Made by a program: the position numbers and the translations under genes | The notes under the pieces: generated by a model | Seen by the model: the letters and a program-made list of their open reading frames with translations, nothing else | What the model was told of the DNA's origin: nothing | Databases searched by the model: none | Shown here: positions 8,809 to 21,212 of the stretch, in pieces | Layout of the letters: the number at the start of each line of letters is the position of its first letter | Numbering within the stretch: the stretch's first letter is position 1 | Origin: Frankiaceae bacterium | GTDB taxonomy: Bacteria; Actinomycetota; Actinomycetes; BP-191 | Direction of reading: 5' to 3' | Length of the DNA: 64,000 bases | NCBI GenBank assembly: GCA_035536815.1 | Contig: DATLNJ010000145.1 | Coordinates: forward strand, 24,231-88,230

Positions 8809-9228
8809 ATGGACGTTCCCGAGGTACAGCGCCGGCTCGCGGCGGCGCTGCGACTGCAGTACCGCTCCGCGCTGCTGCACGCGATCGCCGCGGGCGTCGT
8901 CGGCGGCCCGGACGGCGTCCTCGCGACCGACCTGCTCGCCGAGTACGCCGCTCTGGAGCTGGCCGACGTAGGACGGCTCGCCGACAAGCTCGTGTCGCTG
9001 GACGGAACGCCGCCGGCCGACCTCGGCACGCTGCCCGCGCTCTCCGGCGCCCTCAAGGACGTTCTGACCACCCTGGTGGAGACGGACGACGAGACGATCG
9101 CCGCGCTGCACAAGGTCATCGAGCCCTCCGGCCAGGAGCCGCGCTCGGAGGCGCTTGAGCACCTGATCGAGCACGTCATCACCCGCAAGCAGGCGCAGGT
9201 GGACCGGCTGCGCCGCGCCCTCCGCTAG
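8809..9228 (+). CDS. small helical (ferritin-like?) hypothetical protein
   Basis: 139-aa C-terminal part of ORF 8581..9228 from ATG (MDVPEVQRRLAAAL...). All-helical, acidic. Upstream part of the ORF is Arg-rich noise. Divergent from the PP2C gene. Confidence 0.45.
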   Translation: MDVPEVQRRLAAALRLQYRSALLHAIAAGVVGGPDGVLATDLLAEYAALELADVGRLADKLVSLDGTPPADLGTLPALSGALKDVLTTLVETDDETIAALHKVIEPSGQEPRSEALEHLIEHVITRKQAQVDRLRRALR

Positions 9229-9235
9229 TACGGCC

Positions 9236-11971
9236 CTAGGAGTCGGCGCGCACGGTTGCCGCGAGGATCGCGACGTCGTCGTGCGCGACGTCCGCGGCGA
9301 GCGCGGCCAGCGCCTCGTCGCAGAGCCGTTCCGGCCCGAACGCCCCCCGCGCACCGACCGCGAGCAGCATCGCGAGCCCGTCGTCCACCGGCCGGTCGCG
9401 GCTCTCCACCAGCCCGTCGGTGAACAGCAGCACGGTGGTGCCCGCGGAGAGCTCGCACACGACCTGCGGGTAGTCGCCGGGCCCCGCGCCGAGCGGCGGA
9501 CCCGGCTCGACCTCGGCGTACTCCGGGTCCCCGTCCGGCGGCACCAGCAACGGCGGCAGGTGGCCGGCCGACGCGACCGTCAGCGTCATCGCCGCCGTGT
9601 CCAGGACCGCGACCAACGCCGTCGTCAGCCGCTCCTGCTCGAGCCGGCCGGCGACGGCGTCGAGGCCGCGCAGCACCGCGGCCGGGTCGATCTCGGTAGC
9701 CACCAACGCCGTCGCGGCCGCCCGCATCTGCCCCATGACGGCGGCGGCGTCGAGGCCGCGGCCCATCACGTCGCCGATGACGAGCGCCGTGCGGTGCGGC
9801 GCGACGGGGATGACGTCGTACCAGTCGCCGCCGACGTGGACGCCGACGTCGGCCGGCGAGTAACGCCAGGCGATGTCGACGCCGCGGACCTCCGGCAGCC
9901 GCTGCGGCAGCAGGCTGTGCTGGAGCGTGACCGCGACCTCGCGCAGCCGGCCGAAGCTCTGCGCGTTGTAGAGGGCGATGGCGGCGCGCGCCGCGACCGC
10001 CTCGATCAGCTCGACGTCGTCGTCGGTGAACGGCTCCGGCGCACCGGTGCGGACCAGGCCGATGACACCCATGATCTCGCCGCCGACCCGCATCGCGACG
10101 GCGAGCGAGCTGGTTGGCGCGAGGCGGGCGACGTACGCCGGGTCGTCGAAGCTCTGCCCGATCCGCTGCCGGATCTCCTCGGGCGTCCTGCGGTACCGGA
10201 TGGTGCGGCCGGTGCGCAGCGCCTCGACCACCCCGCCCGCCGCGTGCAGGTCGATGGCGGTGGTGAAGAACCGCTCGTTCAGGAATGCGTCCAGCTCGGC
10301 GTCGCGGTGCGCCACGACGATCGGGCGCGCCTTGGCCGTCCCCGGGTCCGGCTGGTACACCGCACCCCATTCGGCGAACTGCGGCACGAGCACCGACATC
10401 AGGTGGCGTGACGTCTCGTCCGGCTCCAGCGACGAGCCGAGCAGGTCGGTGGTTCGCGACAGGAAGGCGAACCGTTCGCGGGCCGCGCGTTCGATGGCGA
10501 TGAGGTTCGAGCGTTCCAGCGCGAGCGCGGTCTGCGCGGCGAGCGCGGCGACGAACGCGCGTTCCTCGAGGTCGAAGATGCGCGGCTCCGCGAACGAGAA
10601 CCGCAGGGCGCCGACGACGGTGTCGCCGGCGACGAGCGGCACGGCGCAGAGCGAGACGGTCGTCGGCTCGAGCGCGGCGAGCTCAGGGAACCGCTTGTCC
10701 CGCTCGGCGGGCGACTCGAGCCAGACGGCCTCGCCGGTACGCAGCGTGTGCGCCCCCGGCAGCTCGGCGTCCGGCCGTTCGGCGCGCAGCCGCTCGACCA
10801 CCGCCTCCGAGTAGCCGACGACGCCGGGGACGCCGAGGTGCTCGTCGTCCAGCGGCATGAGCAGGCCGCCGCCGGACGCGCCGAGCGCGGCGACGCCCTC
10901 GGTGACGACGACCGCCGCGACGTCCTCGGGCGCGACGGCGCGGGCGAGCGCCGCGGTCACCGTCTGCAGCCGCGCGCCGCGGTCGGCGAGCCGTTGCGCC
11001 GCCGCCACGGACCCGACCTCGGCGAGCAGGAACTCCTCGAACGACGCCACGCCGGGCGGTGCCTCACCCGCGGCCACGGCGCGCAGCTGCGTGACGAGCG
11101 AGCCGACGTACCAGCGGCGGAACGCGCGGTGCTGCGGCGGCGTCGCGAGCGTGAGCAGCCGGGCCGCGCGCGCGTAGTGGTCGACCTCGTCGAGCGCGTG
11201 CAGGTAGTCGGCGCCCGCGTCGGCCGCGGACACCGGGAGCCGCAGCACGAGGTGCGTCCGCGGCTGCGCCGACGAGGCCGCCCCGACCGCCTGCCGCTTG
11301 ATCGACTCGCGCGCGGCGGCGAACCGCGTGGTGACCGTCTTGATCAGGTCGGCCAGGTGCGCGGGGACCGTGGCGCTCTGGCCGGCCGCCGCGCCCGCCG
11401 CCGCGAGCGTGAACTCGCGGACCAGGTTGTCGACGTGCGACTTCGCGTCGATGAGGAGGTCCGTGGGGACGTCGCCGAGCTCGACGTCGTACATCTGCTC
11501 GCCGAGCAGCAGGTCGTCGTGGTCGATCCACGCGTCGGGGAACAGCGGCACGACCGTCGCCGTCGCCTGCTCGCCGGCGACGAGCTCCGCCCAGACGACC
11601 TTGCCGGTGCCGCGCGAGTCGGAGCCGACGCGGCGCGCGAGCGCCGCGACGAGGTGCAGCCCGCGGCCGGTCATGCTGTTGACGCCGGCCAGGCCCCGGA
11701 ACGGCAGGTTCGGGTTCCCGTCCTCGACCTCGAGCCGTGCCATCGTCTCGGTGGCGAGCACCCGCACGTGGATCGGCTCCAAGCCGTGCAGGACGGCGTT
11801 CGTCACCAGCTCGGTCATGATCACCGACGCGTCGTCGACCAGGTCGTCGAGCCCGATCGCCGCGAGCGTCTCCATGGCGAGCCGCCGCGCGCGGGGTACG
11901 GCGTCCGGCTCGGCGGTGAAGCGGAGGTTCGCGTCCGCGATCCAGCCGGCGCCATTGTGTGAAGGCGTCAC
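9236..11971 (-). CDS. multidomain partner-switch regulator: RsbW-like HATPase + GAF + PP2C phosphatase
   Basis: N-terminus SVIMTELVTNAVLHG...GRGLHLV (anti-sigma kinase HATPase fold); central GAF-like segments; C-terminal PP2C motifs GGDWYDVIP...IGDVMGRGLDAAAVMGQ...FTDGLVE. Confidence 0.8.
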   Translation of the reverse strand: MTPSHNGAGWIADANLRFTAEPDAVPRARRLAMETLAAIGLDDLVDDASVIMTELVTNAVLHGLEPIHVRVLATETMARLEVEDGNPNLPFRGLAGVNSMTGRGLHLVAALARRVGSDSRGTGKVVWAELVAGEQATATVVPLFPDAWIDHDDLLLGEQMYDVELGDVPTDLLIDAKSHVDNLVREFTLAAAGAAAGQSATVPAHLADLIKTVTTRFAAARESIKRQAVGAASSAQPRTHLVLRLPVSAADAGADYLHALDEVDHYARAARLLTLATPPQHRAFRRWYVGSLVTQLRAVAAGEAPPGVASFEEFLLAEVGSVAAAQRLADRGARLQTVTAALARAVAPEDVAAVVVTEGVAALGASGGGLLMPLDDEHLGVPGVVGYSEAVVERLRAERPDAELPGAHTLRTGEAVWLESPAERDKRFPELAALEPTTVSLCAVPLVAGDTVVGALRFSFAEPRIFDLEERAFVAALAAQTALALERSNLIAIERAARERFAFLSRTTDLLGSSLEPDETSRHLMSVLVPQFAEWGAVYQPDPGTAKARPIVVAHRDAELDAFLNERFFTTAIDLHAAGGVVEALRTGRTIRYRRTPEEIRQRIGQSFDDPAYVARLAPTSSLAVAMRVGGEIMGVIGLVRTGAPEPFTDDDVELIEAVAARAAIALYNAQSFGRLREVAVTLQHSLLPQRLPEVRGVDIAWRYSPADVGVHVGGDWYDVIPVAPHRTALVIGDVMGRGLDAAAVMGQMRAAATALVATEIDPAAVLRGLDAVAGRLEQERLTTALVAVLDTAAMTLTVASAGHLPPLLVPPDGDPEYAEVEPGPPLGAGPGDYPQVVCELSAGTTVLLFTDGLVESRDRPVDDGLAMLLAVGARGAFGPERLCDEALAALAADVAHDDVAILAATVRADS

Positions 11972-12099
11972 CGGCCGATCATGCCGGGTTCGGGATCAAT
12001 CCGGGAGCAGGCGGCGGCGGGAAACGGACACACCGGTCCAGACCGCCCGCGGAACCCGCCCCGCCGCCGTCCCGCGGGTTCGACGGCGCTCGCCACCGG

Positions 12100-12867
12100 T
12101 CAGATCCAGCCGAGGTCGCTGAACTCAGGGAAGCCCTGCCAGTAGAGGCCCCACCCGGCGAGCAGCGCCGTCGCCACCCCGAACGCGCACAGCAGCAGGC
12201 CGCTGCGCCGCCGGACTCCCCAGCCGGCGAACGCCACCGCGGCGGCGAGCGTGAACACCGGCGTCCCGCCCTCGATGCCGTTGGTCGCGACGGTCAGCCC
12301 GAACAGCGCCGCGAGCGGCCACCGCCACGCGCTGACCACGGCCGCCGGCGTCAGCGCGAGCGCCGCGACCAGCAGGTACAGGCCGCCGTACCAGAGGTAG
12401 TGCCCGACGACCTCGTCCCACAGGTGCACGGGTGCGGCGTCGCCGCGGGCATTGCCGACGGAGTTGGCCGCCAGGTGGATGCCGTGCCCCTCGACGTAGG
12501 CGATCGCACCCGCGGCGGCGACGAGCCACGCGCGCCGGCGCGCGCCGGCCGCCGCGAGCGCGGCGAGCGCCGACCCGACGACCGCGAACGGCGTCAGCAG
12601 GTCGACCCAGTCGGCCCACTCCGTGCGGCCGCCGACCTCGCCGAACGGGCCGACGAGGGTGCCGACGTGGTGGCCGAGGACGACCGCGACGGCGAACGCC
12701 GCGAGCCAGCGGGAGTAACGCACCCCCGCAGCCTGCCGGTCCCCGCCGCCGCGCCGGGTACGCCACGCCGGGCCGGGCCGGGCCGACTCTGCCGGTCGCG
12801 CGCGGGCGGCGGTGTCCGCGCCGCGGAGGCCGGCGGTCTCCGGACGACGCCGGCGCGCACGGGACAT
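12100..12867 (-). CDS. integral membrane protein (hypothetical)
   Basis: Multiple hydrophobic helices (WLAAFAVAVVLG..., YLWYGGLYLLVAALALTPAAVV...). First ~48 aa of the ORF are Arg-rich; true start likely internal (near 12723). Confidence 0.5.
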   Translation of the reverse strand: MSRARRRRPETAGLRGADTAARARPAESARPGPAWRTRRGGGDRQAAGVRYSRWLAAFAVAVVLGHHVGTLVGPFGEVGGRTEWADWVDLLTPFAVVGSALAALAAAGARRRAWLVAAAGAIAYVEGHGIHLAANSVGNARGDAAPVHLWDEVVGHYLWYGGLYLLVAALALTPAAVVSAWRWPLAALFGLTVATNGIEGGTPVFTLAAAVAFAGWGVRRRSGLLLCAFGVATALLAGWGLYWQGFPEFSDLGWI

Positions 12868-13127: not shown

Positions 13128-13706
13128 TTGATCAAGAAGCTTGCGATGGCGGCCCTCGCCGTGGGCGCGCTCGCGCTCAACGCACCGGCCGCGCAGGCCG
13201 ACGCGCCGACCGTCGACTGCCGGCTCCGCTCGGTCCAGCAGGACACGGTCACGGGCCAGACGTTCCAGGGCGCGCTCGGCGGCGTCATCGCCCACAGCGA
13301 CCCGACCACGGTAACGATCAAGTGCCGGGTCACCGTCAACGGCGTGACCGCCGCCTCGACTGACACGGGCACCGGCGTCGGCGTCGCCGCGACGGCGAAG
13401 GACATCTCCTTCGCGGCGGGTGACGCGGACGTCGTCAAGGTGTGCGCGGACTTCACCTCGAGCCACGGCTCGGGCACGATCTGCGTCACAATCGGCATCA
13501 TCCAGGTCCCGCCGCAGGTCGTGTACGACACGCTCGACCCCGTACTCGACGTCGTGTGGGGCACTGTGGACCCCGTCGTCTGCGCGGAGCTGAAGAAGCT
13601 CGCGGGCAGCTACGCGGGTGGCGCGATCGTCATCAACAGCCAGGGCGACGTGTACGTCAACAACGCGCCGCAGTACGACTGCCCGCCGTACGACATCGTC
13701 TGGTAG
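13128..13706 (+). CDS. secreted Cys-containing hypothetical protein, paralog A
   Basis: Signal peptide LIKKLAMAALAVGALALNAPAAQA. GGGAGGA upstream but only 3 nt from the TTG start, so the start codon is tentative (ATG at 13146 also in frame). About 60% identical to paralog B over the shared region. Confidence 0.6.
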   Translation: MIKKLAMAALAVGALALNAPAAQADAPTVDCRLRSVQQDTVTGQTFQGALGGVIAHSDPTTVTIKCRVTVNGVTAASTDTGTGVGVAATAKDISFAAGDADVVKVCADFTSSHGSGTICVTIGIIQVPPQVVYDTLDPVLDVVWGTVDPVVCAELKKLAGSYAGGAIVINSQGDVYVNNAPQYDCPPYDIVW

Positions 13707-14054: not shown

Positions 14055-14234
14055 ATGAAGACCACGCTCAGCCTGAAGCGCGAACGGCTCATGGAGCTGT
14101 CCGTGGCCGACCTGACGAGCGTCCACGGCGGCCACGCCATCACCGCCGTCGGCTTCACCTGCCCGCTGCGCAACTGCGACCTCGGCATCACCGAGACGAG
14201 CTGCGAGTGCTGCACCGCGTCGGGCAGCTGCTAG
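14055..14234 (+). CDS. double-glycine-leader Cys/Ser/Thr-rich peptide P1 (59 aa): MKTTLSLKRERLMELSVADLTSVHGG-HAITAVGFTCPLRNCDLGITETSCECCTASGSC
   Basis: C-terminal 59 codons of ORF 13737..14234 from the in-frame ATG. Leader matches the motif shared with P2/P3. Core has 6 Cys. Confidence 0.55.
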   Translation: MKTTLSLKRERLMELSVADLTSVHGGHAITAVGFTCPLRNCDLGITETSCECCTASGSC

Positions 14235-14467
14235 CCCGACCCGCATGCGGCGCCGCTTCCGGTGCCGCCAGAACACCTCGCGTGCTCGGCGGCACTGGGA
14301 GCCGGCGGGGCTCCTGCGCGGGTCGGGGGCCTGACCACTTTTGAGCATGTGCGGGTTTTCTCTGGACGATGCCCCTCCGCGTCCTTATGTTCTCGCCAGC
14401 CCGCGCCGCGGTTCCTCTTCTCGTTCCCTACGCGAGATGCCGCCGCACGGGACAACGGAGGAAACCC

Positions 14468-15499
14468 TTGTTGAAGAAGCTTGCCATGGCGAGCCTCGCG
14501 TTGAGCGCGCTCGCGCTCAACGCGCCGGCCGCCCAGGCCGACCAGCCCACGCACGACTGCCGCCTCCGCTCGGTCCAGCAGGACACGGTCACGGGCCAGA
14601 CACACCAAGGCGCGCTCGCCGGCGTGATCACGCACGCGGACACGAGCAACGTGTCGATCCGCTGCCGCGTCACGGTCAACGGCGTCACGGTTGCGGCGAC
14701 CCCGGTCGGGACCGGCCCAGGCGTCGCCACCACCGAGAGCGACGTCTCGTTCGCCGCCGGCGACACGGACGTCGTCCGCGTGTGCGCGGACTTCACCTCG
14801 GCCCACGGCTCCGGCACGGTGTGCGTTCTGGTCGGCATCACCGAAGTCCCGCCCCAGGTCGTCTGGGACACCCTCGACGCCGCGCTCGGCGAGCTGTGGC
14901 CGCTCATCGACCCGGTCGTGTGCGAGGTGCTGAAGCAGATCACCGGCAACCACCCCGGCGGGGTCGTCGTCAACGACCAGGGCGACGTGTACGTCAACGG
15001 CGAGCTCGTCTGGGACTGCCCGCCGTACGAGGTCGGCGGGCCGTCCGAGCCGCCGCCGCCGCCTAGCGTGCGGTCCGCGGTCGTCGGTTATATCCGGATC
15101 GTCCGCGACGGCAGCGCGGCGCAGCCCACGACGACCTGGGTCGCGAGCGGTGCGCTGTCGGACCCGAACCAGTGGAGCTGCACCGGCAGCGGGGGTAGCA
15201 CGTCGTACACCGTCACCTGCACGCCCCTCGTGCTGCCGGTCGACGTCAACTACACCTGCGACGTCCTGCACGCCGACATCTACGCGACCACCGCCGGCGC
15301 GTCCGGGCGGACGTCCATGGACTGCAACAGCGACGGCATCCCGGAGGCGCAGACCGGCCAGCAGTTCGGACCGGGCGGCTACGACTTCGTCTGGGCCGCT
15401 AGCACGATGCCCGTGACGGCGTTCACCTGCACGCTCGACCTCGCGGTCCCCACCGTGACCGCCGGCTGCGGCGACCCCGGCCTGGTCGGCATCGAGTAG
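14468..15499 (+). CDS. secreted Cys-containing hypothetical protein, paralog B (longer, extra C-terminal domain)
   Basis: Signal peptide LLKKLAMASLALSALALNAPAAQA; GGAGGA 5 nt upstream of TTG. N-terminal 190 aa paralogous to 13128..13706; the upstream 110 nt is also duplicated. Confidence 0.65.
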   Translation: MLKKLAMASLALSALALNAPAAQADQPTHDCRLRSVQQDTVTGQTHQGALAGVITHADTSNVSIRCRVTVNGVTVAATPVGTGPGVATTESDVSFAAGDTDVVRVCADFTSAHGSGTVCVLVGITEVPPQVVWDTLDAALGELWPLIDPVVCEVLKQITGNHPGGVVVNDQGDVYVNGELVWDCPPYEVGGPSEPPPPPSVRSAVVGYIRIVRDGSAAQPTTTWVASGALSDPNQWSCTGSGGSTSYTVTCTPLVLPVDVNYTCDVLHADIYATTAGASGRTSMDCNSDGIPEAQTGQQFGPGGYDFVWAASTMPVTAFTCTLDLAVPTVTAGCGDPGLVGIE

Positions 15500-15509
15500 C
15501 ACCACCTGC

Positions 15510-15555
15510 CGTACGACGAACGACCCTCGGTTACCCGGGGGTCGTTCGTCGTACC
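15510..15555. terminator. GC hairpin (16-bp perfect stem gtacgacgaacgaccc / gggtcgttcgtcgtac) after paralog B
   Basis: Perfect inverted repeat read directly, 11 nt after the stop. Confidence 0.55.
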
Positions 15556-15970
15556 GGTCAGCAAGCCCGCTCGACGTTCTTGCGGGCGGCGGTACCGCTC
15601 ACGCGGAAGGCGCGGGAAACAACGCCGCCGAAAGCGACGACCGTCGAGTGGCGCCGAAGCCTTTCGCTGCCGGAGATGGTCCGGCGGCGCGGCGCTGTCA
15701 CAGCTGCTTCTCGATGTCGAAGCCAGGTGGTCCTTTCGAATCACGGCAACACCGAACGCGGCCAGCGGCTCCGCGCGTGTCGTCGGCTGCCCTCGCGTGG
15801 CGGCTCGTGGCGCCTGGTGCGGCTGAGACTCGTCCACGACGACGGGCCGGGCCTGGCACGCACACCTGAGCTGGATGCCGGTCGCCCGGTCGGGACGCCA
15901 ATCCCCGTTGTGCGCGGCACCTGGCGCCGTTACGGTCCGCTTCTCCCTACCCCAGAACTGGAGCGGTCCC

Positions 15971-16273
15971 ATGACTCCGCAACGCCTCCTGGCCCGCGTG
16001 GCCGCCGTCTCCGCACTCGCCGTCGTCCCTGTCGTGGCCGCCACGGCCCCCGCGTCGGCGAACGAGTACGACGTCGGCTGCCTCATCTACCCCGGCATCC
16101 TCGTCGGCGAGGAGACGTGGACCAAGGGCTGCCCGTATGACGTCTCGGTCAAGTGCGAGCCGGCCTGCGACGAGCTCCAGGCCCTCGTCAAGCCGCTCAC
16201 GTACTACGCGTACGACACCAAGGACTACCTGCTGGCCAAGACCTGCGAGACCGAGCCGCGGCTCTGCGAGTGA
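15971..16273 (+). CDS. small secreted 6-Cys protein (100 aa; mature ~70 aa)
   Basis: Signal peptide MTPQRLLARVAAVSALAVVPVVAATAPASA. Mature NEYDVGCLIYPGILVGEETWTKGCPYDVSVKCEPACDELQALVKPLTYYAYDTKDYLLAKTCETEPRLCE. Convergent with the S8 protease gene. Confidence 0.6.
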   Translation: MTPQRLLARVAAVSALAVVPVVAATAPASANEYDVGCLIYPGILVGEETWTKGCPYDVSVKCEPACDELQALVKPLTYYAYDTKDYLLAKTCETEPRLCE

Positions 16274-16275
16274 CC

Positions 16276-16321
16276 GCCTTCGCGGCTCGTGGCGCGGGGT
16301 TCGACGCCCGCGCCACGAGCC
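16276..16321. terminator. bidirectional GC hairpin between convergent genes
   Basis: gcggctcgtggcgcgggg ... cccgcgccacgagccgc inverted repeat between stops at 16273 (+) and 16330 (-). Confidence 0.45.
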
Positions 16322-16329
16322 GCCTCAGC

Positions 16330-18099
16330 TCAGAACTGCAGGCTCCACGAGTCGATGTAGCCCGTGTCGCCGGAGTAGATGTCCTGCACCCGCAGCTTCC
16401 ACGTGCCGCTCGCCGTCTCCGTCGAGGCGTTCACCGTGTACGTCGCGAGGACGTTGTCGGCCGAGTCCGAGCTGCTCGAGTTCTTCAGCCGGTACAGCGA
16501 CCCGTCCGGGGCCACCAGGTCGATGACCAGGTCGCCGCGGAACGTGTGCTTGATGTCGACCGGGACCTTCAGCGTCGACGGGGCGAGGCCGGTCCGGCTG
16601 ACGCTGATCGGGCTCTCGACCGTCGCGTTGTCGCTGATCGTGTAGTTGTTCGAGTTCGTGAACAGCGACGGCGACGTGCCGCCGCCCATCACCGCGGTGA
16701 TGGTCTTCGCGGCATCGACGAGGCCGGCCCCGCAGCCACCGCTGCAGGTGCCGGGGATCGCGCGGACGTTCGCCTTGAGAGTCGCCTCGACGTCGGCCGG
16801 GGTCATCGACTTCTTGCTGAGCATGAGCGCGACCAGGCCGGCGACGTGCGGCGTCGCCATGCTGGTGCCCTCGTAGTAGACGTACGCCTCGGTGGTCGGC
16901 GTCGTGGTGCCGCTGTTGAGCGTCGAGGCGATGCCGTTGGCGGCCGCGACGTCGAGCTCGCCACCGGGCGCGGACACGTCCACGACGGTGCCGTAGTTCG
17001 AGTACGACGCGCGGTTGCCGGTGCGGTCGAGTGCGGCGACCGTGACGACGTTCGCGCAGTTCGCCGGCTGCGAGCCGGACGCGTTGACGTTCTCGTTGCC
17101 GGCCGCGACGACGACCGTCGCGCCGCGGCTCACCGCGGCGTTGATGGCGTTCTGGTACGTCGCGCCGCAGGTACCGCCGCCGCCGAGGCTCATGTTGACG
17201 ACCTTGGCCGGGTTGGCGTTGGCGGGGACGCCGGTGACGGTGCCGCCGGCCGCCCAGATGACGCCGTCGGCGATGTCGGACAGCGTGCCGCCGCACTTGC
17301 CGAGAACGCGGACCGGGACGACCTTCGCGTTGAACGCGACACCGGCGACGCCCTTGGCGTTGTTGGAGACCGCGGCCACGGTGCCCGCGACGTGGGTGCC
17401 GTGCCACGAGCTGTTCGAGCCGTACGGGAGCCCGCACTCGCCGGCCGCCCACCAGTCGCCCTGGTCGGCCGCGTTGCTGTCCCGGCCGTTGCCGTCGCGG
17501 GCGGCGGTGGCGCTGGAGATGAAGTCGTAGCCCGCGAGGATGTTCGCGGACAGGTCGGAGTGCGTGGTGATGCCGGTGTCGACGACCGCGACGACCTGGC
17601 CGGTGCCCGTGGCGTTGTCCCACGCGGCCGGCAGGTTCATCCCGGCGGTGGCCTCGTGGTAGTGCCACTGCACGCCGTAGTGGGTGTCGTTCGGCGTCAG
17701 CAACGACCTCATGACGGCGTCCGGCTCGACGTAGCCGACGCCGGGGCGGGCCGCGACGGTGGCCATGAGCGCGCGCGACGCCGCCGCGTCGAGCCGTGCG
17801 TCGGTCGAGAACAGCACGCCGCCGGTCGCGATCCGTCGGACGAAGCCGAGGCGGTGCCCGGCGGCGACGCCGGCCGCGGTGAGCTCGGCGCGCGCCGCTG
17901 TGTCGTCCAGCGCGGCCGGCGCGCCGACCGTGAAGTGCACGATGAAGCGGTCGTACGTGCTGGTGGCGTCGACGGCGGCGTCGTTGGTGCGGCCGCGGAG
18001 TGAGGGGTCGTCGGCCGACGCGGCCGGGGCGGTCAGTAGGGTGACCGCCGCCAGTGCGACGGCCGTGGTGAGCGCGCAGGTGCGCGGGAACGACTTCAA
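16330..18099 (-). CDS. secreted subtilisin-like serine protease (S8) with C-terminal P/proprotein-convertase domain
   Basis: Signal peptide plus pro-region. Catalytic motifs VAVVDTGI (Asp), HGTHVAGTVAA (His), GTSMATPHVAG (Ser). C-terminal ~110 aa beta-rich P-domain-like (FRGDLVIDLVAPDGSLYRL). Confidence 0.85.
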   Translation of the reverse strand: MKSFPRTCALTTAVALAAVTLLTAPAASADDPSLRGRTNDAAVDATSTYDRFIVHFTVGAPAALDDTAARAELTAAGVAAGHRLGFVRRIATGGVLFSTDARLDAAASRALMATVAARPGVGYVEPDAVMRSLLTPNDTHYGVQWHYHEATAGMNLPAAWDNATGTGQVVAVVDTGITTHSDLSANILAGYDFISSATAARDGNGRDSNAADQGDWWAAGECGLPYGSNSSWHGTHVAGTVAAVSNNAKGVAGVAFNAKVVPVRVLGKCGGTLSDIADGVIWAAGGTVTGVPANANPAKVVNMSLGGGGTCGATYQNAINAAVSRGATVVVAAGNENVNASGSQPANCANVVTVAALDRTGNRASYSNYGTVVDVSAPGGELDVAAANGIASTLNSGTTTPTTEAYVYYEGTSMATPHVAGLVALMLSKKSMTPADVEATLKANVRAIPGTCSGGCGAGLVDAAKTITAVMGGGTSPSLFTNSNNYTISDNATVESPISVSRTGLAPSTLKVPVDIKHTFRGDLVIDLVAPDGSLYRLKNSSSSDSADNVLATYTVNASTETASGTWKLRVQDIYSGDTGYIDSWSLQF

Positions 18100-18214
18100 G
18101 CCAGAGCCTCCAGGTCCCCCCAGGAAACGGACATATCTGGGCGAACCTAGACCCGTACCTTGCTCACCTCGAAGTGAGTCTTAGGTAGCCCTGTCGCCAT
18201 AGTGCACCGGCCGA

Positions 18215-18388
18215 TCACCGCAGGCAGGGGTAGAAGAGCTGGCTGAACATCCGCTCGACCCAGCCGGTGACGCACTCCGGCGTCGGGCAGAGCATCGTCG
18301 CGTCGCCGCCAGCGACCGCCTCGAGCTCGCCGGTGCTCAGCTCGGTGAGCGTCTCCTTGGTCAACGTCAGCTTGCGAACGGCGCGCAC
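18215..18388 (-). CDS. double-glycine-leader peptide P2 (57 aa): (M)RAVRKLTLTKETLTELSTGELEAVAGG-DATMLCPTPECVTGWVERMFSQLFYPCLR
   Basis: Hand-translated from the minus strand. GGAGGA present but only 3 nt upstream of the GTG start, so the start is tentative. Leader aligns with P3 nearly residue for residue. Confidence 0.55.
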   Translation of the reverse strand: MRAVRKLTLTKETLTELSTGELEAVAGGDATMLCPTPECVTGWVERMFSQLFYPCLR

Positions 18389-18532
18389 GTGTCCTCCAGG
18401 CAGGGGTGGCAGAAGTCGACGGTACGGCGCCGCGGGCCGGTGGCACGGTGGCCGGACGGCGACTGTTCGGCTACCGCGCCGCGACCGCGCCGCGACCCCG
18501 CCGCCGGCGCCGCCCCGGCGGTAGCCTCGCCG

Positions 18533-18993
18533 GTGCCCCGCGCGCTCCCCGCCGTCGCCGTCGCGGCGGTGTTCCTCGTGCCGCTGTTGCGGGAGAACGC
18601 CCGGTCGATGCGGCTCCCGAACCTGCTCACGCTGGGCGGGTCCGCCGCGGTGGCGTTCACGCTCGTCGTCCCTGCCGCGGGGACGCGCGACGGCGCACCG
18701 GTCGACGCGCTCGTCGGCGGGCTGGCCGGCGGGCCGCGCTGTACGGGCTGCTCTTCGCGTGGCTGTTCGCGCAGCCGGCCGGCCTCGGGTTCGGGACCGC
18801 GAAGGCCGGGCTCCTCGTGGGACTCGCCGCGGGCGCCCTTGGCCTCGTGCCGTGGGTGGTCGCCGTCGCGACGTTGCTGCTGGCCATCGGCGGAAGCGTG
18901 GTGGCGCTGCGGCGGGCGGAGCGGACGCAGGTCCCGACCGGCCCGCCGCTGGCGCTCGCGCTGCTCGCCGCCGCGATCGCCGCCTTCGTGTGA
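18533..18993 (+). pseudogene. small multi-TM membrane protein apparently split by a +1/-1 frameshift near 18725
   Basis: Frame of ORF 18389..19087 gives TM-like LPAVAVAAVFLVPLL...SAAVAFTLVVPAAG up to about 18725. Frame of ORF 18406..18993 then gives TM-like AALYGLLFAWLF...GLLVGLAAGALGLVPWVVAVATLLLAIGGSVVAL to its stop. Each frame is Arg-rich noise outside these parts. Confidence 0.35.
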
Positions 18994-19022
18994 CCTCCCG
19001 CGCCGCCGCTCGCGCTCCCGGC

Positions 19023-19193
19023 TCAGCAGGTCCCGGTGCAGTAGTAGTCCGGGCAGGCGGTCAGCGTATGCCGCAGGCAGTTCGTGACGTCCGCGGTGGC
19101 CGGGCAGCCGGTGCCGCCGACCACCTCGGCCAGCTCCGCCGACGTGAGCTCGGCCAGCGTCTCCTTGCGCAACCGCAGCGTGCGAACGGTCAT
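19023..19193 (-). CDS. double-glycine-leader peptide P3 (56 aa): MTVRTLRLRKETLAELTSAELAEVVGG-TGCPATADVTNCLRHTLTACPDYYCTGTC
   Basis: Hand-translated from the minus strand. SD-like GAGGTGA 4 nt upstream of ATG. Core has 6 Cys and 8 Thr. Confidence 0.6.
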   Translation of the reverse strand: MTVRTLRLRKETLAELTSAELAEVVGGTGCPATADVTNCLRHTLTACPDYYCTGTC

Positions 19194-19289
19194 CGGGTCA
19201 CCTCGCGTCCGTAGGGAGAACGACGCGTCGAGGCTACTGCGCCACCGTCGTCACCCACGCGGGCGCACGGCGCAGGCCGAGCGACCCGC

Positions 19290-19751
19290 TCAGGGGCTGA
19301 GATCGACCGAGGCGACCTGGGTCCCGACTGCCGGGTTCCACACCGCGTGCCCGATCGACTGCGCCACGGCGTTCGAACCCACGCCGGTGAACGTGAAGTT
19401 CGCGACGAACGTGCCGTCGCGGGTGCCGAACTTCTGGACGTACTCGCAGTAGTCCACGGTGTACCCCGAGCTGTACCAGCCGGTGCCGGTGAAGTACTGC
19501 CCGTCCCGCACGCCGTTGATGTCGAGCTGCCACTCACCCGTGATCTGGGTACCGACCTGCCGCTCGCCGTGCACGCACACCTTCAGCGAGTCGAAGCCGA
19601 CCAGCAACGTGATCTTGGACCGCGCGACGAGCCCGGGGCCGCGTTCGTCCGCCCCGGCGGTCCCGGACCCCGCGGCGAGGACGGTGATGACGACGGCAGC
19701 GGGCAGCGTTGCGCGCAGCGCACGCGAAAGCAGACGCACGGTGACGATCAC
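19290..19751 (-). CDS. secreted hypothetical protein (153 aa)
   Basis: Signal peptide MIVTVRLLSRALRATLPAAVVITVLAAGSGTAGA; beta-rich mature part with 2 Cys. Directly downstream of the sigma factor gene. Confidence 0.6.
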   Translation of the reverse strand: MIVTVRLLSRALRATLPAAVVITVLAAGSGTAGADERGPGLVARSKITLLVGFDSLKVCVHGERQVGTQITGEWQLDINGVRDGQYFTGTGWYSSGYTVDYCEYVQKFGTRDGTFVANFTFTGVGSNAVAQSIGHAVWNPAVGTQVASVDLSP

Positions 19752-19801: not shown

Positions 19802-20947
19802 CTAACGAGTGAGCGGGGGATCGACAACGGGGTCGTCGTGCCGGGTGCAGGTCACGACCGGTGCGAGCGGCTCGACGGCCGGGCAGACGCCGACGTAGGA
19901 CTGCATCACGCAGGGCAACGTGCTTCCCGGGAGGACGCAGATCTCGTCGCCCTTCGGGTCGTGACCGACGCAGTGGTCCTCGCCGACGCAGGCTCCCCCA
20001 GGCATCTCTTTCGGCAGCAGCGAGGGCGGGTCCTGCGTCGGAGGCGCCGAGACTCGCTTGCGCGGGGTCGCGCGCGCCAACTTGGGCGCCGGCTTCGTGA
20101 CGGGCGTCCGGAGCTCGGCGCGCTCCGGGCCGGCCACCGCCGCGACGGCGGTCGTGCCGGCCGGCGCGGCGGCCTCCGCGACGTACGGCGGCGCCACGGG
20201 GACGGCGGGCGCGTGCGCGACCGTCAGCACCAGCGCCGCGAGGACGACGAACGCCGGGGCGGTCGCCACCGGAGCGAGCAGCGACGGCTTGCGGAACCGG
20301 AACAGCGCCGCGATGCCGGAGACCTCGCGCAGCTCACGCCGCAACGACTCGCGGCCGCGCTGGACCAGGCCCTTGAGCGTCGTCGCGCTGACGCCCATCG
20401 CGTCCGCCGCCTCGGACTGGCGCAGCTCGGCGACGTCCACCAGCGCGAGCGCCCGCCGCTGGCTGTCCGGCAGCTGGCCGAACGCCCGGCGCACGTCGGC
20501 GTTGCGCAACTCCCGCAACGCCTCCTCCTCCGGGTCCTCGACCATCCGCGTGGTGCGGCGGTACACGGTCTCGAGCCAGCCGTCGTGCCGGACGCGCTCG
20601 CGCCGCCGCGCGTCGCTCAGCGCGCGCAACGCCGTCTTGTGCGCGTAGTTGTAGGCCGCGTACTCGGTGTCGAGCGTGTCGTACACCGGCATCAGCTTCA
20701 CGAACGCCGTCTGCACGACGTCGTCGACGTCGATGTCGGCCGGCAGGCCGCGACGCCGCGCGTCGGACCGCACCTCCCTGCGCAGGCCGTCGGAGGACGT
20801 TGCGACGAACGCCGCGAACGACCTCTTCCCGCTCAGGCTCGAACCCCCCGGCGCGACCACGGGCCGACCTCCTCGTCTTGGCACTGCATGCTGGGATGCA
20901 CGTAGTACGCACGAGATGGGTGGTTCGGGACATTTCGCCCGGGACAT
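19802..20947 (-). CDS. ECF sigma factor fused to a TM helix and Pro/Cys-rich extracytoplasmic C-terminal domain
   Basis: Sigma-70 region 2 (VVQTAFVKLMPVYDT...YAAYNYAHKTALRALSDARRRE) and region 4 HTH (LPDSQRRALALVDVAELRQSEAADAMGVSATTLKGLVQRGRESLRREL). Then TM (SLLAPVATAPAFVVLAALVLTVA), a Pro-rich linker and an 8-Cys C-terminal module. Start uncertain (ATG at 20947, or the upstream ATG at 21022). Confidence 0.65.
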   Translation of the reverse strand: MSRAKCPEPPISCVLRASQHAVPRRGGRPVVAPGGSSLSGKRSFAAFVATSSDGLRREVRSDARRRGLPADIDVDDVVQTAFVKLMPVYDTLDTEYAAYNYAHKTALRALSDARRRERVRHDGWLETVYRRTTRMVEDPEEEALRELRNADVRRAFGQLPDSQRRALALVDVAELRQSEAADAMGVSATTLKGLVQRGRESLRRELREVSGIAALFRFRKPSLLAPVATAPAFVVLAALVLTVAHAPAVPVAPPYVAEAAAPAGTTAVAAVAGPERAELRTPVTKPAPKLARATPRKRVSAPPTQDPPSLLPKEMPGGACVGEDHCVGHDPKGDEICVLPGSTLPCVMQSYVGVCPAVEPLAPVVTCTRHDDPVVDPPLTR

Positions 20948-21212
20948 CGGGTGGCCTTTGCACCGATCAGTCGCGCGTGGCGCGACTGTGCCGCGTGGTG
21001 GGCTCCTGCGCAAGCCCACCACGCGGCTCCCGTCTCCGCAGGCTACGGACGGGGAGGAGGCCGGCGACCCCTACAACCGCCGCCCTCCACTAGGTAAAGA
21101 CGCGCGAGCGCCCGGAACGGAACGGCCTCGCCCGAACTTTTTTTCGCGGGCCTCTCCGGGTCTCCGGCCGCTGCGGTTGGATCGGACCGACCGCGGCCAC
21201 CAGGGGGTCTGC

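Follow-up and report, generated by a model that had tools for sequence, protein, structure and literature searches.

Class I lanthipeptide precursors (LanAs) with a leader of the type LxLxKx5L that ends in GG, encoded in clusters together with a C39 protease, have been described mainly from Bacteroidetes (Walker et al. 2020, PMC7268733), and clusters in which LanBC and LanT accompany GG precursors have been reported from Mycobacterium tusciae, Corallococcus and Cystobacter (Singh and Sareen 2014, PMC3951391). Prochlorosins, as Walker et al. note (PMC7268733), escape mining that is limited to the neighbourhood of the enzymes. In the present study we examined three small peptide genes, designated P1, P2 and P3, in a 64-kb stretch of DNA with 74% GC (the whole of which is referred to as the window) that belongs to a 103,093-bp contig from an uncultured Frankiaceae genome bin. 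We consider it probable that P1-P3 encode LanA precursors of a class I system with the LxLxKx5L...GG leader, not the classical FNLD leader, and that these precursors are matured in trans.

Precursor genes and leader type

The three putative precursor genes, with their predicted leader and core segments and their GenBank entries, are as follows.

14055-14234, + strand: P1, 59 aa, ATG at 14055 and TAG ending at 14234; leader MKTTLSLKRERLMELSVADLTSVHGG (14055-14132), core HAITAVGFTCPLRNCDLGITETSCECCTASGSC (14133-14231); VNA20_18050, HVF06744, annotated 'hypothetical'
18215-18388, - strand: P2, 57 aa, GTG at 18388 and stop ending at 18215; leader MRAVRKLTLTKETLTELSTGELEAVAGG (18388-18305), core DATMLCPTPECVTGWVERMFSQLFYPCLR (18304-18218); HVF06748, annotated 'class I lanthipeptide'
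19023-19193, - strand: P3, 56 aa, ATG at 19193 and stop ending at 19023; leader MTVRTLRLRKETLAELTSAELAEVVGG (19193-19113), core TGCPATADVTNCLRHTLTACPDYYCTGTC (19112-19026); HVF06750, annotated 'class I lanthipeptide'

All three open reading frames (ORFs) proved to be intact at the positions where the original prediction had placed them, and with a third-position GC content of 0.98 (P1), 0.95 (P2) and 0.95 (P3) in DNA of this composition they look like coding sequence. Translation driven by Shine-Dalgarno sites had been suggested as a check, and ribosome-binding sites do lie upstream, being clear for P2 (GGAGGA, 3 nt upstream of the GTG) and P3 (GAGGTGA upstream of the ATG) and weaker for P1. 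A scan for promoters and terminators, uninformative in GC-rich DNA, gave no promoters and three terminator-like sites against 2.3 expected, and no upstream motif common to P1, P2, P3 and the cluster-linked precursor described below was found.

The common leader pattern ending in GG, followed by Ser/Thr/Cys-rich cores, was recovered both by alignment and by a profile search. In the alignment the leader residues L, L, E, L, E, L, L, V, G and G are invariant, and a C-P pair comes shortly after the leader in all three peptides. The cores contain six Cys and nine Ser/Thr (P1), three Cys and four Ser/Thr (P2), and five Cys and seven Ser/Thr (P3), so that each holds residues that could form thioether rings. 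A leader hidden Markov model (HMM), built from seven leaders that all come from other contigs and are encoded beside LanB, LanC or C39-transporter genes, was searched against 815 six-frame segments of the window. It scored P3 at 43.5 bits (E 8e-13), P2 at 36.8 bits (1e-10) and P1 at 25.0 bits (5e-7), with the next best segment reaching only 2.1 bits; the window therefore holds exactly three such ORFs, and their scores, far above those of all other segments, indicate a leader likeness well beyond what chance would give.

The motif itself is an exact LxLxKx5L in P3 (L6-x-L8-x-K10-x5-L16, ending GG27) and P2 (L7-x-L9-x-K11-x5-L17, ending GG28), and carries Arg in place of the Lys in P1 (L5-x-L7-x-R9-x5-L15, ending GG26). 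P2 and P3 match the NCBIfam model of class I lanthipeptide leaders, NF038153, scoring 27.2 and 22.8 bits, respectively, where the curated cut-off is 22, and precomputed matches to Pfam PF28317 (Lant_leader_dom) include P2 and the protein P0011. Judged by sequence, the leaders of P1-P3 belong to the known LxLxKx5L...GG class I type. The original prediction had called them class-II-like, an assignment that did not survive comparison with family models: in addition to the NF038153 matches, the best score of any class II model with the window peptides (TIGR03893, lichenicidin A2 family, 15.6 bits) is far under its cut-off of 32.95, and the enzymes encoded at loci with this leader are LanB (L010, L011, L019 and L020) and LanC (L011, L019, L020 and L031). 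The resemblance to leaders of the lacticin-481 and mutacin type, which had also been pointed out, we ascribe to a cleavage motif common to substrates of C39 transporters.

The kind of peptide is already known, and it is the host lineage and the degree of dispersal that extend it. For the window the result is mostly a clarification, P2 and P3 being rightly named in GenBank; P1, now 'hypothetical', should be renamed class I lanthipeptide like the other two. The part worth following is the scattered, array-forming layout in an uncultured actinobacterial lineage.

Predicted maturation enzymes in the same genome bin

A tblastn search of the whole 64 kb with family-specific LanB, LanC and LanT queries returned only generic ABC-ATPase similarity. 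There is no LanB, LanC or C39 transporter in the window, in agreement with the lack of a nearby maturation enzyme that had been noted originally. A search with the LanB of L011, one of the loci in related genomes, found a Frankiaceae LanB, P0031 (HVF03796, domains PF04738 and PF14028), which lies with a LanC (HVF03797, domain PF05147) on a 38,993-bp contig where the neighbouring genes are tagged VNA20_03050 to VNA20_03075. The tag of P1 (VNA20_18050) has the same prefix, and HVF03796 falls in the same accession block as P1-P3. A readable copy of the Lan cluster, L020, comes from run SRR8544467, as does L006, which is identical to window positions 17662-19750. The tags, the accession block and the common run tie the Lan cluster to the window's bin; the GC content of its contig is 0.732 versus 0.739 in the window. 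The genes of L020, in order, are listed below.

Three secreted paralogs of the proteins that flank P1 in the window
Precursor VNA20_03065, 49 aa, MRLTLKKDTLHELTADELTSVVGG-RIPTWYSGCVTTIYPSVGEDTCIPR
LanC, 404 aa
LanB, 1,003 aa, with both Pfam domains
Accessory protein VNA20_03050, 148 aa, no family match
Transporter, 82% identical from residue 1 to the L010 and L011 transporters with Pfam C39 (PF03412); best NCBIfam match an NHLP-type peptidase/permease/ATPase exporter

The same genome bin contains LanC, LanB, an accessory protein, a C39 transporter and a cognate precursor, and the leader of the latter matches that of P3 at 14 of 23 aligned residues. The N-terminus of the 148-aa protein appears to us to resemble transporter accessory proteins. 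The term 'orphan' used in the original prediction remains apt for the position of P1-P3 and is inappropriate for the genome, since the same bin encodes LanC, LanB and a C39 transporter. The usual criterion of genome mining is that a precursor adjoins its enzymes; P1-P3 do not, nor do most of their relatives, and adjacency is a criterion of detection, not of chemistry.

Because the enzymes lie outside the window, together on a 39-kb contig of the same bin, P1-P3 would mature in trans, and of the three explanations offered originally it is modification in trans by a distant synthetase that we favour on the evidence. The steps we propose are those established for class I systems and for C39 transporters. 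The conserved leader would recruit a full-length LanB dehydratase, which would turn Ser/Thr of the core into dehydro-residues via glutamyl-tRNA-dependent glutamylation and elimination; the LanC cyclase would add Cys thiols of the core to these dehydro-residues, giving thioether rings; and an ABC transporter with an N-terminal C39 peptidase would cut after GG (or GA/AG) and export the product. P1-P3 would then form part of a dispersed precursor library with hypervariable cores. We infer from this arrangement that the bin's enzymes would act on P1-P3, and ring patterns as well as any bioactivity are likewise predictions.

Family members and their dispersal in related genomes

A profile search of a 90%-clustered protein collection yielded twelve further peptides (metagenomic homologues), one of which is 89% identical to P3. 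The P3-type core ...TLT[AF]CPD[YF]YCTGT[CV] is found in this homologue and four others, and five P1-like peptides retain the core ...FTCPxxxC...T[ED]TSCECCTASGSC. Conservation had been among the checks suggested originally, and the cores are indeed kept in homologues from other samples, the 89% identical relative of P3 included. A HMMER scan of 1.84 billion cluster representatives recovered 1,242 clusters at E<=0.001, nearly all of 48-76 aa, and those sampled have the same leader and core style.

Core statistics were compiled for 56 distinct family members. Thr, Cys and Ser make up 13.9%, 13.4% and 7.1% of core residues, respectively, no leader contains Cys (0/56), and Ser+Thr equal or outnumber Cys in every core (56/56). 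The number of Cys is even in 37 cores and odd in 19, and the latter is not favoured by an all-disulfide peptide. Leaders end in GG (36 members), GA (14), AG (3) or AA (3). The motif [ST]xPxxxC is present in 31 of the 56 members; it was considered as an argument for a thioether ring and rejected, with the inner Cys missing in nine members and the Ser/Thr in nine. A longer protein, P0177 (481 aa), consists of approximately nine tandem units, each with a GG-leader-like IELSEEDLEAIVGG followed by a short Cys-containing core ..CTPDDCGENHNETL.., and may be a multi-core precursor.

Scanning species-representative genomes revealed 13 loci, distributed over five genome bins of which three are assigned to Frankiaceae, one to Mycobacteriales and one to Actinomycetota. 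Three of these loci include Lan enzymes, the rest having none within the sequence at hand.

L010: precursors beside a C39-ABC transporter and LanB, the contig ending inside LanB
L011: precursors beside LanC, LanB, the 148-aa accessory protein and a C39 transporter
L019: precursors beside a C39 transporter, LanC and LanB

Tandem arrays account for ten leader hits in L008 and 18 in L012. A scan of metagenomes added 22 loci, and one 277-kb contig carries precursors at ~154 kb (seven genes), ~229 kb (one gene) and ~266 kb (about nine genes), with a LanC homologue only ~9 kb from the ~266 kb group. A Lan enzyme is present at five of about 19 loci that have at least 8 kb of flanking sequence. Precursors in relatives are mostly far from enzymes, and dispersal is the rule.

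Several of these loci have features of their own. In L012 (7777-13206 and 14240-16576), which holds the largest array, two genes are embedded among the leader hits: an M4 protease of thermolysin type (11254-12801) and a membrane protein that is fatty-acid-hydroxylase-like (9185-9769). A weak radical-SAM match, below cut-off, lies just downstream. Other precursors adjoin housekeeping genes: two tandem copies in L017 (~1600-2179), the first frameshifted relative to the second, are situated just downstream of an rpoC-like gene, read as such from its translation, and the precursor neighbours in L007 are presumably gyrA/gyrB, again from translation only. L001 contains a DUF4157/eCIS_core protein with HExxH (9030-10550) wedged among three precursor genes in a tight operon. 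A different GG-leader peptide without Cys, MPEPIQRLTDDELRVVAGG-THTIEHILAQVHYHADRKENDVNELLSRILHS, is encoded in L002 (6095-6250, - strand), adjoining a 340-aa protein of no recognised family.

Gene neighbourhood in the window

Genes near P1-P3, and one farther away, are given here as context.

4812-7274, - strand: 820-aa protein with an LQRAAGNAAV motif, an Ala-rich region and membrane spans
13128-13706, + strand: secreted paralog VNA20_18045, ~190 aa, just upstream of P1
14471-15499, + strand: second secreted paralog VNA20_18055, 342 aa, just downstream of P1
16330-18099, - strand: secreted S8 subtilase with a P-domain (Pfam Peptidase_S8 and P_proprotein), downstream of P2
~18500-18993, + strand: small multi-pass membrane ORF between P2 and P3, on the opposite strand
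19802-21022, - strand: extracytoplasmic function (ECF) sigma factor with a C-terminal fusion, read as a membrane span and, after it, a Cys-rich segment

Several of these had been described in the original prediction, and Pfam agrees on the S8 protease with its P-domain, as does our reading of the sequence on the ECF sigma factor with its fused transmembrane and Cys-rich region, and on a frameshifted membrane gene, the ORF between P2 and P3 being readable throughout only with a frameshift near 18720. As a degenerate prepilin peptidase this ORF was rejected, having no Pfam match. The secreted paralogs number at least 15 copies in the bin, three of them beside the LanC/LanB cluster, and they also form arrays without precursors (L021 and L022); a structural model suggests a beta-sandwich fold and nothing further, and they were rejected as a candidate enzyme. 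The nearest solved relatives of the S8 protease are secreted proteases of the AprV2/BprV type, and among the 60 structure matches listed for it none is named as lanthipeptide-associated. With generic secreted subtilases as its nearest solved structures it was rejected as a lanthipeptide leader protease, and any part in trimming the peptides is speculative. Its weak counterpart (32% identical), adjoining a precursor in L014, is the only one found for a window neighbour; no homologues beside family members elsewhere were found for the ECF sigma factor, the 153-aa protein, the mini-protein, the 255-aa membrane protein or the 820-aa protein. The last has no Pfam or NCBIfam match. An ECF sigma factor near the precursors of L001, also with a long C-terminal extension, is unrelated and not orthologous to that of the window.

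Other genes around the peptides identified by Pfam include SpoIIE phosphatases, a ferritin-like protein, a VIT1 protein, a glyoxalase and trpA/B/C, together with what we take from its translation to be trpE. Farther off, among ORFs at 30-62 kb with frames chosen by codon-position GC, Pfam identifies dnaE, ileS and ABC ATPases.

A distinct cluster of the thiazole/oxazole type (TOMM-like), equipped with a Cys-rich candidate precursor and overlooked in the original prediction, occupies positions 551-4331 on the - strand. Its SagC-like gene ends 9.9 kb from P1, the gene next downstream of the operon is amidohydrolase-like, and no YcaO cyclodehydratase is visible in the operon (551-4331).

4176-4331, - strand: candidate TOMM-like precursor, 51 aa, Cys-rich, ...GGWCCSCCCWCHCHV...; first in transcription order
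3087-4151, - strand: SagC/E1-like leader-binding protein (TIGR03882, 52 bits)
2223-3077, - strand: 284-aa protein with a faint SagB match
1285-2613, - strand: SagB-family dehydrogenase (TIGR03605, 131 bits)
551-1618, - strand: multi-pass membrane protein

Alternative explanations

A number of points weigh against class I maturation of P1-P3 in trans. P1 gave no match to NF038153 at E<=1, the P2 core is poor in Cys (three) and in Ser/Thr (four), and [ST]xPxxxC does not separate a thioether from a disulfide loop; the case for P1-P3 products is built from genes, membership in a genome bin is not proof of a single organism, and a second synthetase, for example a LanM, may be encoded elsewhere in the genome. 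Some of these observations would suit unmodified, disulfide-bonded double-glycine bacteriocins or signals that use a C39 transporter only, leaving LanB and LanC uninvolved. Such peptides would also accord with weak matches to PF10439 (class II bacteriocin GG-leader; 13-14.5 bits, below cut-off), with the even number of Cys in 37 of 56 cores, with the few Ser/Thr of P2 and with a CPxxxC segment that could form a disulfide loop. We nevertheless regard this explanation as unlikely: the LxLxK-E part of the leader is as strictly kept in distant precursors as in those beside LanB/LanC, which would point to recognition by an enzyme and not by a transporter alone, the 19 cores with odd Cys numbers and the Ser+Thr content that at least equals Cys in every member fit it poorly, and at the loci examined, wherever a member adjoined a C39 transporter, a LanB was present too. 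The location of P1-P3 among unrelated housekeeping and regulatory genes, the frameshifted precursor copy of L017 and the frameshifted membrane ORF between P2 and P3 could instead suggest that the three are copies of cluster-encoded precursors, now silent or decaying, that yield no product at present. This we find improbable to a marked degree, given intact frames, ribosome-binding sites (P1's being the weaker) and third-position GC of 0.95-0.98, cores conserved elsewhere (a homologue of P3 at 89% identity, and a C-terminal core that five P1-like peptides have unchanged) and a family of ~1,240 clusters of intact 48-76-aa proteins.

The chance that P1-P3 are class II precursors served by a distant LanM, in the manner of prochlorosins and ProcM, is very small. 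The ELxxxxVxGG half of the leader does resemble class II leaders, there is the weak lichenicidin A2 family match, and the rest of the genome lies outside the analysis; that match is, however, far below its cut-off, the enzyme found at all five enzyme-linked loci is LanB and/or LanC, and in the same bin LanB/LanC are accompanied by a cognate precursor whose leader is of this type. No LanM turned up among the neighbouring genes examined, where no search aimed at LanM was made. We give the least credence to a new maturation system assembled from the neighbours, that is, the secreted paralogs, the S8 protease, the Cys-rich mini-protein and the ECF sigma factor, an explanation raised in the original prediction for which the comparison of loci gave no support. 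The secreted paralogs do flank P1 and adjoin the LanC/LanB cluster of the same bin, three loci have a secreted protease in the vicinity of precursors (S8 in the window and L014, M4 in L012), and ECF sigma factors occur near precursors in L001 and L002. The neighbours are not conserved partners, however: the paralogs, multicopy in the bin and arrayed without precursors in L021 and L022, occur at none of the other precursor loci, the S8 protease looks like an ordinary secreted subtilase, and other loci hold no homologue of the window's ECF sigma factor, 153-aa protein or mini-protein. Maturation of P1-P3 in trans by a class I enzyme set remains the reading we prefer.

Comparison with known systems

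The closest described peptides are those of the LxLxKx5L...GG class I type (PMC7268733; NF038153, lant_leader_L1a; PF28317), which have the same leader motif, GG end and Ser/Thr/Cys-rich core, and the same set of a full-length LanB, a LanC and a C39-domain ABC transporter in the genome. That type is known chiefly from Bacteroidetes, its precursors having been found no more than seven genes away from the enzymes (PMC7268733), whereas P1-P3 come from an uncultured Frankiaceae lineage in which most precursor genes are far from the enzymes. The clusters of Singh and Sareen (PMC3951391) are alike in combining LanB/LanC, a C39 transporter and GG precursors and in having very Cys-rich cores, and include one from an actinomycete; unlike P1-P3, their precursors lie inside the cluster, and the likeness is drawn from their description.

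The leaders of lacticin 481 and mutacin II share the ELxxxEL..GG segment, which is recognised by C39 transporters in many peptide families, and differ in the class of synthetase and in having no upstream LxLxK segment. S8 proteases of the LicP and CylA type carry out a second step of leader removal after cleavage at GG. An S8 protease adjoins P2, and many family members have a short conserved segment (for example QAITAxG) between GG and the first Cys motif, which is reminiscent of such a step; unlike LicP and CylA, however, the protease of the window is not close to lanthipeptide proteases among solved structures and is not conserved beside family members, and we take it as a lead only.

In their organisation, P1-P3 and their relatives recall the prochlorosins of marine cyanobacteria, the class II products of ProcM, which likewise have many precursors with one leader, hypervariable cores, scattered genes and a GG end. 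We tentatively suggest that they may represent a class I (LanB/LanC) counterpart of that system, with one LanB/LanC/C39 set maturing dozens of scattered precursors with hypervariable cores. Such a library could possibly extend, a suggestion we hold with equal reserve, through the uncultured Frankiaceae soil lineage and related Mycobacteriales, its precursors occurring singly or in arrays of up to 18 genes. Mining tools look only within a few genes of the enzymes (PMC7268733), and nearly all members of the P1-P3 family would therefore be missed. If the suggestion is correct, nature would here have assembled a combinatorial library around split class I enzymes, and a single LanB/LanC pair that processes many scattered and very different cores would be a substrate-tolerant pair, which could be of use for peptide engineering. 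The prochlorosin system differs in relying on a single LanM and a Nif11-type leader, as opposed to the separate LanB and LanC and the other leader family found here, and diversification of precursors in the style of a library would then not be confined to class II enzymes in cyanobacteria.

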